Of a DNA stretch of 64,000 nt, positions 1 to 64,000 are shown one piece after another. Both the position numbers and the translations under genes were made by a program. Every line of letters starts with the position of its first letter. The first letter of the stretch is position 1. Where the stretch lies: sequence record PP886230; one strand, written 5' to 3'. Under the pieces are notes generated by a model, which saw nothing but the letters and a program-made list of their open reading frames with translations, searched no databases and had not been told where the DNA came from. This DNA comes from Escherichia phage vB_EcoM_E9.1.

Positions 1-25
1 CAAAGATACATACATTCTTAAATCA

Positions 26-343
26 ATGTCACCTATTACCGTGTTTCCTGAGAACCTATTCACTACATTAAAGAATAGTTTTATTGTGGGTGATATTGAT
101 GCATTCAAGTATTTTGACAAAGGTGCAAAACATTTTGAAATTCAATGTCTTAGTACTGCACTATGTGAACTCATTAAAATTTACATAAAAGAGTATTTGG
201 GTATTGACAATGTACGTGTACCAGAGTATACTTTTTCTATTGAATTCGATTGTGAATCAATCAAAGAGTTTGGAATTCTTTTCAATAAACAAATAGAACT
301 TGCAATTCAAAACGAAATCAAGTACTATACTACTAACATTTAA
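26..343 (+). CDS. hypothetical protein (105 aa)
   Basis: ATG ORF from track, compact plus-strand gene block. Confidence 0.5.
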   Translation: MSPITVFPENLFTTLKNSFIVGDIDAFKYFDKGAKHFEIQCLSTALCELIKIYIKEYLGIDNVRVPEYTFSIEFDCESIKEFGILFNKQIELAIQNEIKYYTTNI

Positions 344-358
344 TCAGAGGAAATTATC

Positions 359-541
359 ATGCAAATTATCATTCTTATCGTTGGCATCATGCTGGGTGTT
401 TACGGTCACTCCTGGATGAACGAGAAGTTTCCTAATACGCGTCCTGAGTATTGCAGTACTAATGTATTCCAGAATGGTGAGAAACCAAAGGAAAGCATTG
501 GTAAAAAGCTGGATAAAGTACTTGATGTGATCAATGAATAA
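359..541 (+). CDS. small membrane protein (60 aa)
   Basis: RBS-like agaggaaa upstream; hydrophobic N-terminal segment. Confidence 0.5.
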   Translation: MQIIILIVGIMLGVYGHSWMNEKFPNTRPEYCSTNVFQNGEKPKESIGKKLDKVLDVINE

Positions 542-752
542 GGGCCATAAAATGTTTAAACCGAATTCCAATGTTGGTAAGAAAGTTCAATTACTTGAAG
601 ATGTATCCACCATGAGTGGAATTTTCCCAAGAGGTCACATCATGACTATTATTGCCGAAACATCCCGTGGGTGGGATTTGGAAGATGCTGATGGTAATCG
701 CATCCTTGAGGCTGGATTCTATGGTCATCGTGAATATAAAATCGTTGATTAA
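534..752 (+). CDS. hypothetical protein (alt start 552)
   Basis: ORF overlapping upstream stop (ATGA-type coupling). Confidence 0.45.
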   Translation: MNKGHKMFKPNSNVGKKVQLLEDVSTMSGIFPRGHIMTIIAETSRGWDLEDADGNRILEAGFYGHREYKIVD

Positions 753-848
753 GGATACAACATGACTTTAGAGATTGTCTTTGGTATTGTTAGCTTAGTC
801 GTCTGTGTGGGTTGGTTTGGGTATCTGATGATTTTTGGTGATTAATAC

Positions 849-876
849 TTGACATAAGATATCAGTACTGTATAAT
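849..876 (+). promoter_or_regulatory. sigma70-type promoter, extended -10
   Basis: TTGACA - 16 nt (ending cagtactg) - TATAAT. Confidence 0.6.
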
Positions 877-906
877 GTTTATATCAAACGAAATCCACTT
901 TAACAA

Positions 907-1200
907 ATGATAGGAAATATTATGTCTTTTTCTAAAGAAGAACGTGACCTTATTAAAAAAGCAATTTGGTTTTATGCTAATGAAGGGAAGTGCGATGAAG
1001 AAAAAGCACGTGAACTGTGTAATATTCTTGAGAAGAAACAAGAACTGAAAGTGTATCGTATCCGTGATTTGGATGAAGGAGATCGTATTGTCCTAGCTGA
1101 AACAAAAGAAGAAGCAGAACAAATCTTCACTGATAAAAACGAAAATCCACATTGGATGGAAGAAGTCTGTGATGTTAAAAAAGGTACTTATATCGATTGA
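907..1200 (+). CDS. hypothetical protein (alt start 922)
   Basis: ORF downstream of consensus promoter at 849-876. Confidence 0.5.
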   Translation: MIGNIMSFSKEERDLIKKAIWFYANEGKCDEEKARELCNILEKKQELKVYRIRDLDEGDRIVLAETKEEAEQIFTDKNENPHWMEEVCDVKKGTYID

Positions 1201-1234
1201 CAGTACTGAATAATAGCAGTATTATGTTTTATAT

Positions 1235-1298
1235 AAAAGGGAATGCAGTGAAAGGAAAGACAGCATAATCGTACTCGTCACTGCGTTCCCGCCCTTTT
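1235..1298 (+). terminator. long inverted repeat, terminator candidate
   Basis: aaaagggaatgcagtga ... tcactgcgttcccgccctttt. Confidence 0.4.
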
Positions 1299-1319
1299 AA
1301 ATTAAATGAGGAATTAACT

Positions 1320-1628
1320 ATGTTTCAAACTAACACTCAAGGTTTTGTAATCATCGATTTGAATCAAAACAGCGGTCATTGGATGAAACCTACTGACGCA
1401 TGTATGCAGTTTGATTTCTTAGGTTACAAAATTAGTGTAAGTACTGGTGCTTCTGTACTGAGAGGTGGTTGTATCGTTGAACATCTGGTAACTGATCCAG
1501 AAGGTCGTGAGTATGAAATCGCAGGTTCAGTACAAGATGCCATTATGTTTGTATGTCAGCGTGAAATGAATGGTTCGAATTCAAATGCACTGACTCATGC
1601 TCTTTCTCAAGAAGTGGAGGTTCGTTAA
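1320..1628 (+). CDS. hypothetical protein (102 aa)
   Basis: RBS gaggaa 8 nt upstream of ATG. Confidence 0.55.
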   Translation: MFQTNTQGFVIIDLNQNSGHWMKPTDACMQFDFLGYKISVSTGASVLRGGCIVEHLVTDPEGREYEIAGSVQDAIMFVCQREMNGSNSNALTHALSQEVEVR

Positions 1629-1873
1629 TGAAATACATTGTAGCAGTACTCGTCGCATTTCTACTCACTGCATGTGATGCTTCTACCAAAGAACGTACAA
1701 GTGATTTTGTTCTACCTGCTGAATTAAAAGAAGCAGGGTGTAAGATTTATCGTATGCAACAAGATGGTGCTGGTGCGACTTTATACACTGTGTACTGTCC
1801 TAATGCAAATACAAGTACTGGATACACTAGCGGTAAAACACGAATCAACACTTCCGTAATTCATGGAGAATAA
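1628..1873 (+). CDS. putative lipoprotein
   Basis: signal peptide with lipobox-like LLTAC. Confidence 0.55.
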   Translation: MKYIVAVLVAFLLTACDASTKERTSDFVLPAELKEAGCKIYRMQQDGAGATLYTVYCPNANTSTGYTSGKTRINTSVIHGE

Positions 1874-1875
1874 CA

Positions 1876-62211: not shown

Positions 62212-62218
62212 AAACTAT

Positions 62219-62279
62219 TTGACAGTACTAACCAGTAATGTATAATGTTTTACATAGAGCGGGGGAATAGTTCTCCCGC
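62219..62279 (+). promoter_or_regulatory. PeSL-like cassette
   Basis: TTGACA .. TATAAT .. GCGGGGGAAtagTTCTCCCGC. Confidence 0.6.
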
Positions 62280-62301
62280 CAATAGTTTGGAGTTAAACAT
62301 T

Positions 62302-62502
62302 ATGTCTATCGCTATCTCCCTGGTTGAAGTACTGAAAGAAGCTAAAGCCAACCAGATCGACGTAAAGATCCAGGAACTACAAAACGGCTTAATCGGCTGT
62401 ACTTGTACCGCTGGTGGAGCGGCAGACTATCGAGAACACGAATCACTCGAATCACTGGTTCGGTATCTTTCCATGATCGTTGATGATTGGAGAATCATCT
62501 AA
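62302..62502 (+). CDS. hypothetical protein
   Basis: internal ATG (MSIAISLVEV) after RBS ggag. Confidence 0.5.
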   Translation: MSIAISLVEVLKEAKANQIDVKIQELQNGLIGCTCTAGGAADYREHESLESLVRYLSMIVDDWRII

Positions 62503-62518
62503 CAAAAAAGAATAAAAA

Positions 62519-62555
62519 AGGGATTGACTCCGGTCAGTCCCTTTGCTATTATATA
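62519..62555 (+). terminator. terminator/promoter hybrid element (second-half variant)
   Basis: same as 57268 copy. Confidence 0.55.
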
Positions 62556-62746
62556 CGCATAGACAAAAACTAGCCCACAGGGTGCATAGGTGTATCCAAA
62601 ATATATAGTTAATAACGGTGAGTAACTATCTGCTGGTGGAACTAAAACTATTAATAAAAAAGTATTGACAAAGTATATCAGTACTGCGATAATGTATCTC
62701 GTAGGGCGGCAATGGTGCGACGGCCCACAAAGTTAGGAGATTCAAA

Positions 62747-63079
62747 ATGACTACTTCAATCGCTATCGTTAAAGCTTTCATCCGTACTAATGTTTCCTCT
62801 GTATTCATCGACGGCCTCGACCGTAACGTAGAATACTCAATCATTATCGCACAAACGGCAAACGGTTCTCGGTACATCCTGAATGATAGTGAAGCAAATC
62901 ACTACTACTTCACTAAAGCCACTGGCTTTAAACGCATCGATGCTGATGTAGTATACGCTAAGATGAATAAGCTGGTAGATAAGATTAACGCTAAAGGTAC
63001 TATAGATTTACAGTACTGGACCGAAACCGATCCAGAGTATGGATCTCACCGCTACCTGAATCCAGGTATCAAAATGTAA
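62747..63079 (+). CDS. hypothetical protein (110 aa)
   Basis: promoter upstream; RBS aggag. Confidence 0.55.
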   Translation: MTTSIAIVKAFIRTNVSSVFIDGLDRNVEYSIIIAQTANGSRYILNDSEANHYYFTKATGFKRIDADVVYAKMNKLVDKINAKGTIDLQYWTETDPEYGSHRYLNPGIKM

Positions 63080-63086
63080 AAAGTAC

Positions 63087-63147
63087 TTGCATAGTACTTA
63101 GATTCATGTATAATGTTTTACATAGAGAGGGGGAAATGGTTCTCCCT
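63087..63147 (+). promoter_or_regulatory. PeSL-like cassette
   Basis: TTGCAT .. TATAAT .. GAGAGGGGGAAatggTTCTCCCTC. Confidence 0.6.
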
Positions 63148-63168
63148 CCTAAATTAAGGAGTTTTATC

Positions 63169-63570
63169 ATGACCTTCTCAATCAATTCCTTCGCTGACGT
63201 TTTAGTACTGGCCCGGACTTTTGGTAAAGATGCACTGGAGTACGCTGTAAGTAATGGCACTATCCAACCGGAACAGTGCCGCATCATTGGAAACTGCAAA
63301 CGTTGGGCGGTATCCAATACTATTGCACTGGAAAACTTCCACGATGGCAACAATGAATATTCTGTTGATGTAGTATTCGAAGCCGTTGATCTCGGCGGTA
63401 TCTATAATACTAACCTGAATGATGTGCGTATCGTTCGCACGGGGTTCGGTGCTTATGATGTATCTATCCGTGAAGCTATGAACACCGGATACATTAGCAA
63501 GGACTTACTTGCTCACATCATGCAGCTGTGTACGGAACGTAACGAAGCACGTACTATCTTAGGGCTGTAA
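63169..63570 (+). CDS. hypothetical protein
   Basis: internal ATG (MTFSINSF) after RBS aaggag. Confidence 0.55.
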   Translation: MTFSINSFADVLVLARTFGKDALEYAVSNGTIQPEQCRIIGNCKRWAVSNTIALENFHDGNNEYSVDVVFEAVDLGGIYNTNLNDVRIVRTGFGAYDVSIREAMNTGYISKDLLAHIMQLCTERNEARTILGL

Positions 63571-63638
63571 GCAATACACATCACCAAACATCATAGGCCG
63601 CTCTCTAGCGGCCTTAACTATATCAGGAGTACATACAT

Positions 63639-63848
63639 ATGTTCTATACAGTATACAGCGTTCTAGGCACTATTGCAGGCGTACATGATAACGTCAATGA
63701 TGCTATGCGTACAGTACTGCAACAGGTTCCACTAAAGCCTAAGACCATTAAGCAGATGACAGCACGACTAACCAGGGCGACGGCTGGCGTGGAAGTATGG
63801 CAGGACTATGGGGATACACAGATAATCGTAAGCGTAACGAAGGATTAA
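63639..63848 (+). CDS. hypothetical protein (69 aa)
   Basis: RBS aggag. Confidence 0.5.
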   Translation: MFYTVYSVLGTIAGVHDNVNDAMRTVLQQVPLKPKTIKQMTARLTRATAGVEVWQDYGDTQIIVSVTKD

Positions 63849-64000
63849 TGCGTAAAGGGATTTAGTACTGATTCAGAAAAAAGTCAAGGCGTTTTTAAAA
63901 TTATGCGTTAAAAAAATGCATAGGTAATCCCTTGACTTTTTTGAAATAAAAGGGATTGGACTATGGCAAAATGCGTAGGGGGCTAAAGGGCGGGTAACCT

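Follow-up and report, generated by a model that had tools for sequence, protein, structure and literature searches.

The hexamer palindrome AGTACT was analysed in a 64,000-nucleotide stretch of Escherichia phage vB_EcoM_E9.1 (sequence record PP886230), here called the window, where it occurs 291 times, or 4.5 times per kb, against 0.34 per kb expected. We read its extended form, (T)TC-AGTACT-GA(A), as a selected, genome-wide recognition site on double-stranded DNA, bound by a factor of two-fold symmetry that is most likely a dimeric DNA-binding protein, and give this reading a probability of roughly 0.45. The window was placed among the Asteriusvirus jumbo coliphages by megablast of 8 kb, the nearest records being SHEFM2K (98.9% identity), slurp01, SP27 and PBECO4.

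Exact k-mer counts were compared with Markov expectations. The excess is 13.5-fold at order 0, and the expected counts at orders 0, 1, 2 and 3 are 21.6, 22.0, 49.5 and 111, respectively. Low-order composition was ruled out as the cause, since orders 0–3 expect 22–111 copies and 291 are seen; the maximal-order model expects 236, which shows merely that the component 5-mers are enriched. The initial annotation had guessed at about 0.3 copies per kb expected and several per kb seen, and had described a palindrome that is enriched rather than avoided. The counts bear this out, the over-representation being stronger than estimated and the observed/expected ratio lying far from 1. AGTACT ranks first among hexamers by z-score and CAGTACTG first among octamers, the latter with 63 copies against 0.7 expected under the Markov model and 0.86 ± 0.93 (maximum 4) in 100 dinucleotide-preserving shuffles, an excess of about 70- to 90-fold; TCAGTACTGA makes up 16 of the AGTACT sites. 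GTAC as such is enriched threefold, and of the xGTACy words the one with A and T as outer bases stands at 13.5-fold and the rest at 3-fold or less. AGTACT is the sole palindrome in the window above about 2.2-fold enrichment. GTGCAC is second among the enriched hexamer palindromes in the related phages RaK2 (3.4-fold) and GAP32 (3.1-fold) and third in the window (2.2-fold). GTGC and GCAC stand at about 1.4- to 1.5-fold, and CCAG and CTGG at about 2-fold, the pattern expected of host Dcm/Vsr repair.

The enrichment acts at the level of DNA. About 200 sites of the window lie in genes (3.7 per kb) and 88 in non-coding DNA (8.3 per kb). Several reading frames had been noted in coding DNA before, and all three are in use, with 86 sites reading AGT-ACT (Ser-Thr), 71 reading xxA-GTA-CTx (x-Val-Leu) and 43–44 reading xAG-TAC-Txx ([KQE]-Tyr-x, about 44). 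Shuffling of synonymous codons, with proteins and codon usage kept, gave 43.5 ± 6.1 genic sites against 201 observed (z = 26), and shuffling of codon order predicted 25; codon or dipeptide bias was ruled out by both. The bases around the hexamer are symmetric as well. C is found at −1 in 44% of the sites and G in 9%, G at +1 in 47% and C in 7%, and further out T is favoured at −3/−4 and A at +3/+4, giving the symmetrised consensus (T)T-n-C-AGTACT-G-n-A(A), also written (T)TC-AGTACT-GA(A). As a duplex, the phage-type site is TTCAGTACTGAA, and its fullest form, (G)ATTCAGTACTGAAT(C), is frequent in a region of the window that is free of open reading frames (ORFs).

The flank symmetry persists when coding sites are oriented by transcription (C 45% on either side), which argues for a two-fold symmetric reader of duplex DNA and is unlike an RNA or peptide signal. 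It is thus most improbable that the word works in RNA, where AGUACU, the same from either strand, would be a site of binding or cleavage or would build hairpins by pairing with itself. Pairs of copies do form terminator and leader hairpins, and one island of the genome, described below, keeps the motif in the sense orientation only, as such a signal would have it. The density peaks, however, in non-coding promoter DNA upstream of start sites, and a palindrome would be needless for an RNA signal where the genes of each block run nearly all one way.

The sites are under purifying selection. Between the window and SHEFM2K, divergence is 1.06% within AGTACT (13/1,224 bases) and 3.42% outside (p = 1.3e-7), with 10 sites unique to the window and 15 to SHEFM2K. 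In 18 structural-gene orthologues (15.9-kb codon alignment), PBECO4, RaK2 and GAP32 carry 25, 28 and 34 sites, respectively, and the shared positions number 5, 8 and 1 against 4.4, 3.5 and 3.1 expected of any hexamer. This means that density, not position, is what selection keeps between genera. Such behaviour is that of genome-wide words, among them highly iterated palindrome 1 (HIP1), uptake sequences and Chi, and unlike that of operators. The functional site proposed in the initial annotation is thereby upheld at the DNA level, the flanks being symmetric, divergence in the sites about threefold lower and density maintained over three genera.

In each lineage examined genome-wide, AGTACT enrichment is accompanied by near-total absence of GCGC. 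GCGC is missing from the window (67 expected), from 275 kb of PBECO4 (217 expected), from RaK2 and from GAP32. AGTACT is enriched 7.5-fold in RaK2 (Klebsiella) and 6.8-fold in GAP32 (Cronobacter), with the same flanks (at −1, C about 40% and G 6%), and shows no enrichment in the Pseudomonas relative PA5oct, with 1 copy against 11.7 expected. At loci of the major capsid gene, ten members of the enterobacterial clade (capsid identity 80–100%) have 15–29 sites per 13 kb, one locus of 4.3 kb having 5, and GCGC is at zero in 10/10. Seventy environmental relatives (capsid identity 64–68%) have 0–10 sites, with no clear AGTACT excess, and GCGC is present in 69/70. A sample of E. coli K-12 has AGTACT at 0.26-fold (0.06 per kb) and GCGC at 1.6-fold (6.8 per kb). 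Among hexamer palindromes, 24 of the 64 are absent from the window; GGCC, CCGG and CGCG are close to expectation there. The absence of GCGC suggests a GCGC-directed nuclease, either one that the phage escapes or one used against host DNA.

Two further observations were made on viral contigs. The IMG/VR contig 3300031414_000001 (370,971 bp, a jumbo phage) has 59 AGTACT in 8.8 kb (20-fold) and no GCGC; the fetched region has almost no nucleotide similarity to the window, and the capsid is 89% identical to that of PBECO4. Other viral contigs, including one of 8.1 kb, carry AGTACT along their full length at 4- to 8-fold, yet contain GCGC, and may represent additional lineages in which both traits are uncoupled.

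The joint occurrence of enrichment and GCGC loss in all enriched lineages examined is what a by-product of mutation or biased repair would predict, whether through purging of GCGC, in which deamination of both methylated cytosines yields GTAC (AGCGCT to AGTACT), or through repair of the very-short-patch type that turns near-matches into the motif. The single-step products GTGC, GCAC and GTGCAC are mildly raised (1.4- to 2.2-fold), as are half-sites one base away, such as xGTACT at about 2.6-fold. We nevertheless consider this origin very unlikely. A passive process would not give sites three times better conserved than flanking DNA, the GCGC copies to be expected (67 per window) are far fewer than the surplus of GTAC (about 435), and the enrichment is specific to A..T outer bases and C/G flanks rather than to GTAC generally. 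The deamination neighbours AGTATT (1.5-fold) and AATACT (1.3-fold) are not depleted, and CpG is at 0.86 of expectation and not depleted either. A drive by very-short-patch-type repair in particular was rejected, the depletion of AGTATT and AATACT that it predicts not being seen.

A second lineage with the same signature was found, next to jumbo-phage contigs, by scanning viral contigs for three clustered CAGTACTG; most other contigs recovered in this way were rejected as local tandem arrays, not genome-wide enrichment. The lineage, here called family A, consists of contigs of 31–34 kb with a GC content of 39–43% (38% in a prophage locus of a Leclercia assembly). Its gene set comprises a lambda-type large terminase, a lambda-family portal, a protease-capsid fusion, a lambda-like tail tube, a tail tip and a large serine recombinase. 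The terminase has a counterpart of 88% identity in the Leclercia assembly and remoter relatives in Yersinia, Serratia, Pantoea and E. coli prophages; comparison of family A with phage and plasmid collections gave no similar record. In 698 kb from 36 loci, AGTACT was counted 2,982 times against 215 expected (13.9-fold) and GCGC 6 times against 1,315 expected. At −1, C is found in 57–62% and G in 6–9% of the sites in two viral-contig loci, and C in 32% and G in 12% in the Leclercia prophage. A host operator was sought with ATTCAGTACTGAAT across 100,044 species genomes, which gave more than 120 scattered matches in unrelated taxa and no enterobacterial cluster.

Family A bears directly on the proposal that an orphan DNA methyltransferase acts on AGTACT or on its GTAC core, the methylated sites serving, as an epigenetic mark in the style of HIP1, to protect DNA, to tell parental from new DNA or to time early promoters. 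Among the genes of the jumbo phages are those for a Dam-family N6-adenine methyltransferase (PF05869, PBECO4 gp148) and a C5-cytosine methyltransferase (PF00145, gp416), the authors of RaK2 report methylated DNA, and two orphan methyltransferases recognise HIP1, the closest hyper-abundant palindrome known. Symmetric flanks around a palindrome would suit a type II-like enzyme, and the methylation state of motifs inside early promoters could gate initiation. We still hold such a mark to be unlikely. Family A has the same motif and flanks, and no methyltransferase was recognised in the roughly 30 kb examined; the cytosine methylation reported for RaK2 is at a CpG site, which AGTACT does not contain; and methylation by itself gives no reason for enriching a site. 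The suggestions of the initial annotation that the target is one of a phage-encoded enzyme or of methylation are both weakened by family A, in which motif and flanks recur with no recognisable shared gene or methyltransferase.

The core of the site is the same as that of the published site of the nucleoid-occlusion protein SlmA, GTGAGTACTCAC (PMC3020112), so that phage DNA might activate SlmA against FtsZ and block division. Cells infected by Sharanji, a member of the same genus that has no known division inhibitor, form filaments, and phage DNA is spread through them (PMC11895373), which keeps the idea weakly alive, and the enrichment is seen in phages of Enterobacterales and not in the Pseudomonas phage PA5oct. 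A hijack of SlmA is nonetheless highly improbable on the flanks. The SlmA site requires G1, T2, A4 and G5, with a purine at position 3 (PMC3020112). In the window GTRAGYRCTYAC has 0 matches, a GTG half-site is found in 1/582 half-sites, and purine/pyrimidine flanks occur at 36 sites, where an estimate from base composition gives about 73; in all lineages G at −1 is reduced to 5–10%, and the best-conserved non-coding sites read GATTCAGTACTGAATC. Identity with an SlmA-binding site was accordingly rejected. The LexA SOS box was rejected too, CTGT-N8-ACAG and TACTG-N10-CAGTA both being at 0 in the window, although the half-words TACTG and CAGTA lie within the motif.

The density of sites follows the layout of the window, which is as follows.

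1–24.6 kb, + strand: middle-type genes.
24.6–38.7 kb (24611–38725), − strand: array of 11–12 RCC1-fold paralogue genes of about 370–430 aa.
1–38760: middle-type + strand genes plus the − strand RCC1 array; 121 AGTACT sites (about 3 per kb), nearly all within coding sequence.
38829–43620, + strand: tandem array of about 24 tiny paralogous ORFs of 59–77 aa, adjoining the direct terminal repeat (DTR); 7.2 AGTACT sites per kb.
43621–45560: ORF-free stretch, spanning the end of the DTR.
43894–64000: DTR of about 20 kb with early genes; 133 AGTACT sites, 6.6 per kb, the peak density.
45.5–64 kb, + strand: small genes with a strong promoter ahead of each.

The terminal repeat was located by alignment. 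In the G17 record, which has both terminal repeats, base 1 corresponds to window position 64,000 and the last base to 43,894, and a DTR of 20,668 bp was determined for Sharanji by PhageTerm (PMC11895373); window 43,894–64,000 is therefore the terminal repeat. Sites climb from about 2 per kb genome-wide through about 3 per kb in the first 38.7 kb of the window to 6.6 per kb in the repeat. In the 275 kb of PBECO4 outside the region of the window, 588 AGTACT were counted (2.1 per kb, 6.3-fold), with 11–41 in each 10-kb bin, at 2.11 per kb in coding and 2.32 per kb in non-coding DNA, neither gene starts nor stops being favoured. Of the sites outside the DTR, 90% lie in coding DNA, evenly spread and without positional preference, and spacing is slightly more even than random (coefficient of variation about 0.8 in 6 of 7 regions).

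The high density reported earlier for the ORF-free region is confirmed at about 19 sites in 1.9 kb, or about 10 per kb. A repeat family of this region (D1, TCAGTACTGAnnnn) has nine copies, and an Rfam scan of the region gave no family at gathering score. Two repeat units of this region are listed here.

43798–43893, + strand: direct repeats AATG(N)TGATTCAGTACTGAT (family D10), 2 copies, whose ends lie outside the DTR, 74 and 14 bp from its boundary at 43,893/43,894.
45411–45503, + strand: 40-nt unit TTGATTCAGTACTGAATAATAGTACTCCTATATAGAAAGA (family D3), 2 copies, 100% identical, 53 bp apart.

Of the two AGTACT sites in each copy of TTGATTCAGTACTGAATAATAGTACTCCTATATAGAAAGA, one is the perfect 14-bp palindrome ATTCAGTACTGAAT.

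In the early promoters of the terminal repeat the motif takes fixed positions. The distance from AGTACT to a downstream TATAAT shows two sharp peaks, at 7 nt (n = 15) and at 27 nt (n = 17), on the + strand only and in the DTR only; both peaks are missing elsewhere in PBECO4, in RaK2 and in GAP32. The repeat contains 12 sigma-70 promoters with a perfect 12/12 consensus, all on the + strand. One example of each class is given.

57847–57874, + strand: class 1 promoter, TTGACA-N9-AGTACT-g-TATAAT, motif starting 7 nt before the −10.
45990–46022, + strand: class 2 promoter, aaaAGTACTTGCAA-N16-TATAAT, motif fused to a TTGCAA −35, its first base 27 nt ahead of the −10.

Class 1 has the spacing TTGACA-N9/10-AGTACT-g-TATAAT and 15 members on the + strand (e.g. 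44259, 53803, 54387, 56539, 58117 and 60692). The motif directly 5′ of the −10 hexamer, as first noticed, is found as AGTACTnTATAAT in these 15, and 13 of them read AGTACTGTATAAT. Class 2 has 17 members on the + strand, AGTACTTGCA occurring 17 times on the + and once on the − strand. Both positions, 20 bp apart, are occupied in three promoters (48291/48311, 49076/49096 and 52767/52787). The idea of a promoter-spacer determinant thus holds in part: it is real at two positions and minor in extent, covering 32/291 sites, all inside the terminal repeat. A promoter element as the sole explanation was rejected on the same count, the sites elsewhere being spread over coding DNA. An extended −10 element (TGnTATAAT, with TG at −15/−14) was rejected as well; in AGTACTgTATAAT the TG abuts the hexamer, and the scan flags the element in none of these promoters.

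Paired copies of the motif build hairpin stems, those of the RCC1-cassette terminators among them, and the cassette hairpins GCCAGTACT..AGTACTGGC named in the initial annotation are present. One of these is given here.

28233–28258, − strand: terminator-type hairpin AATGCCAGTACTcaAGTACTGGCATT after an RCC1-paralogue gene, two motif copies forming the stem, followed by a T-rich run.

Degenerate terminator hairpins with one intact motif copy lie at 29459, 30268, 36353 and 37601, and the same terminator cassette follows each RCC1-fold gene of the − strand array at 24611–38725. For a role in condensation or packaging, also proposed earlier, nothing speaks directly: the genes labelled 'regulator of chromosome condensation' are RCC1-fold paralogues by annotation, which is no evidence that DNA is condensed. 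A leader hairpin, GGGGAGAA-N4-TTCTCCCC (TATAATgttttacatNgaGGGGAGAAatggTTCTCCCC), is conserved about 10 nt past the −10 of many early promoters (e.g. at about 48325–48345, 52801–52825, 53835–53879 and 56571–56613).

Several observations weigh against a symmetric protein reader. At PBECO4 116,608–124,301, about 7 kb past the right end of the window, an island of 7.7 kb is devoid of AGTACT and contains AGTACA 44 times, in every case on the sense strand and never in the other orientation, spread over all three frames and over unrelated genes. SHEFM2K retains 20/23 of the island AGTACA copies. In ph0011 (75% identity) the island has 32 copies against 0 opposite, with 15/32 positions kept against 17.6% expected and about ten new ones; no further such island was found in the 275 kb examined. 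Such polarity is not predicted by a symmetric dimer and hints at strand-specific reading, through nicking, hemimethylation or single-strand recognition. No DNA-binding Pfam family (no helix-turn-helix, ribbon-helix-helix or TetR) was found among the 102 window proteins, the families matched being DenV-like, ParE-like, DksA/TraR, GNAT and AAA. When every ORF of 40 aa or more was compared by BLASTP and phmmer, the only genes common to the jumbo phages and family A were a lysozyme and a GAP32-specific mobile HNH endonuclease. Identical flanks in two unrelated lineages would call for one common reader and so imply a host protein, and SlmA misfits the flanks. To our knowledge, SlmA is the only E. 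coli protein with an AGTACT-centred site. One site every 470 bp is sparse for coating DNA. General host pressure was ruled out as the source of the signature: phages that share only the C-terminal domain of the family A tail fibre, and through this tip probably its hosts, are host-like, with AGTACT depleted at 0.27-fold and GCGC at 1.47-fold. Given this depletion and the lack of a recognisable shared gene, the twin signature is a lineage trait reached twice, not one imposed on all phages of these hosts.

The polarity of the island, at 44 against 0 and conserved while sites turn over, implies that each strand can be read on its own, as it would be if the motif were the target of a nuclease or nickase in phage DNA transactions such as the start of recombination-dependent replication, clamp loading for late transcription or concatemer processing at the terminal repeat, the island then being cut on one strand. 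The two TGATTCAGTACTGAT repeats 14 and 74 bp from the DTR boundary fit this, as do the several HNH and GIY-YIG nucleases and the T4-type recombination set that the phage encodes and a spacing of 0.3–0.7 kb, a little more regular than random. The motif has no nuclease linked to it, however, and no site lies closer than 130 bp to the other DTR boundary. Family A, which is temperate and lambda-like with another terminase, shares the motif, yet its roughly 30 kb examined contain no recombination module, and cutting both strands every 470 bp would be lethal to the phage unless kept under tight control. We therefore rate a cleavage target as quite unlikely.

Returning to a dimeric protein on duplex sites, we infer that the reader acts at promoters and serves in self/non-self discrimination. 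It would sit almost only on phage DNA, the host having 0.06 sites per kb and the phages 2–7 per kb, and the avoidance of GCGC would be the mirror-image mark, the host having 6.8 per kb. Occupancy of the −35-fused and −10-adjacent sites would control early transcription in the terminal repeat; the two positions, 20 bp apart, would be separated by about two helical turns. Outside these promoters, roughly 900 evenly distributed sites would draw the same factor to the whole length of the genome, to organise or protect it or to serve functions linked to replication.

A wider proposal, which we regard as rather doubtful, is that the presence of AGTACT and the absence of GCGC jointly make up a self/non-self code, written in sequence and used by at least two unrelated enterobacterial phage lineages, namely jumbo myoviruses of the RaK2/121Q/GAP32 type and a lambda-like prophage family of 31–34 kb. 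AGTACT-dense, GCGC-free DNA would be treated as that of the phage, for instance by being spared by a GCGC-directed nuclease and served by the AGTACT reader, the composition of host DNA being the opposite. The same code in both lineages could mean that one host factor is exploited, or that the small phage adopted the jumbo code to survive or replicate in co-infected cells, and the 7.7-kb island would be a region with one strand meant for reading.

The closest known phenomenon is HIP1 (GCGATCGC) of cyanobacteria, and no description of the AGTACT motif in phages was found in the searchable literature. No paper joins AGTACT and jumbo phages, and those on Sharanji, CBB and RaK2 make no mention of the motif. 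Like AGTACT, HIP1 is a short palindrome, enriched 15- to 300-fold genome-wide and found in all frames and in intergenic DNA. Set against a HIP1-like level of at least tenfold genome-wide, AGTACT stands at 13.5-fold in the window, 6.3-fold over 275 kb of PBECO4 and 13.9-fold in family A; it too occurs in all frames and between ORFs, beyond codon and amino-acid usage, and its sites are conserved above background between close relatives, with density alone conserved between genera. For HIP1 no gene-level, peptide or RNA role has been found and a role in chromosome organisation has been proposed (PMC5861425), and orphan methyltransferases are present in the same genomes. AGTACT differs in its sequence, in being carried by a phage genome rather than a cellular chromosome, with the host depleted, in its tie to the total loss of a second palindrome, GCGC, in its fixed promoter positions and in the full turnover of sites between genera; a methyltransferase link is unlikely for family A.

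DNA uptake sequences (DUS) and uptake signal sequences (USS) of Neisseria and Haemophilus, Chi and the FtsK-orienting polar sequences (KOPS) resemble AGTACT in that density over the genome counts, not single sites, and in that they mark 'self'. Words of the DUS/USS type are tolerated in coding DNA and often form inverted pairs in terminator stems. All of these are asymmetric, one-strand and cellular, whereas AGTACT is a palindrome with symmetric flanks and no orientation bias; only the AGTACA island is polar. The SlmA site GTGAGTACTCAC shares the central hexamer and the palindromic form, is read by a dimeric helix-turn-helix protein and has few host sites, and it departs from the phage sites in that G1, T2 and the position-3 purine are absent or counter-selected in the latter. 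Avoidance of restriction sites is seen in the same genomes, with 0 GCGC and 24/64 hexamer palindromes absent from the window, and AGTACT, the ScaI/Eco255I site, has the opposite sign at 13.5-fold enrichment. T4-type discrimination by modified cytosine, a property on all phage DNA and on no host DNA by which phage factors can act selectively, is used as a working analogy only; the discriminator here would be sequence words (AGTACT present, GCGC absent) and not a modified base.

Phages are known for avoiding short palindromes, and here one is raised 6- to 14-fold over 350 kb and kept by selection. Should the reader be found, it would give a handle on how jumbo phages without a nucleus tell their own DNA from that of the host, on early-promoter switching and possibly on filamentation upon infection. 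The two-word test (AGTACT high, GCGC zero) picks out these phage lineages in metagenomes, ScaI digestion offers an immediate experimental probe, and engineering of these phages can take the motif as a design rule. For the question of HIP1, which is of long standing, they also provide a second system, one that is easier to study by experiment.

Other features of the terminal repeat were recorded alongside. The ORF-free end of the repeat contains iteron-like direct repeats, which may mark an origin or a terminase recognition region.

44612–44658: direct repeat GAYGGATTTTGGRCGTAG, two copies.
44690–44790: direct repeats GACGGCTAAACGGCTAGA with a 16-bp period.

Almost every gene of the genome is oriented away from the right-hand repeat copy, which, as an inference only, would fit transcription-assisted DNA entry as in T7. 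Canonical Chi (GCTGGTGG) clusters in the terminal repeat, which holds 9/10 of the + strand copies of the window (44483, 50555, 54624, 56086, 57354, 59424, 60832, 62410 and 62632), against 0–2 per 50 kb elsewhere in PBECO4. These copies are in the orientation met by RecBCD coming in from the genome end at window position 64,000. On the − strand Chi occurs at 44471 and 50493, and a single hairpin at 44471–44490 consists of Chi and its complement. A 28-nt hairpin, AAAGGGATTGACTCCGGTCAGTCCCTTT, is identical at 57266–57293, 60257–60284 and 62517–62544, with a variant at 53228–53255, and its TTGACT also serves as the −35 of a promoter-like site, TTGACT-N17-TATTAT.

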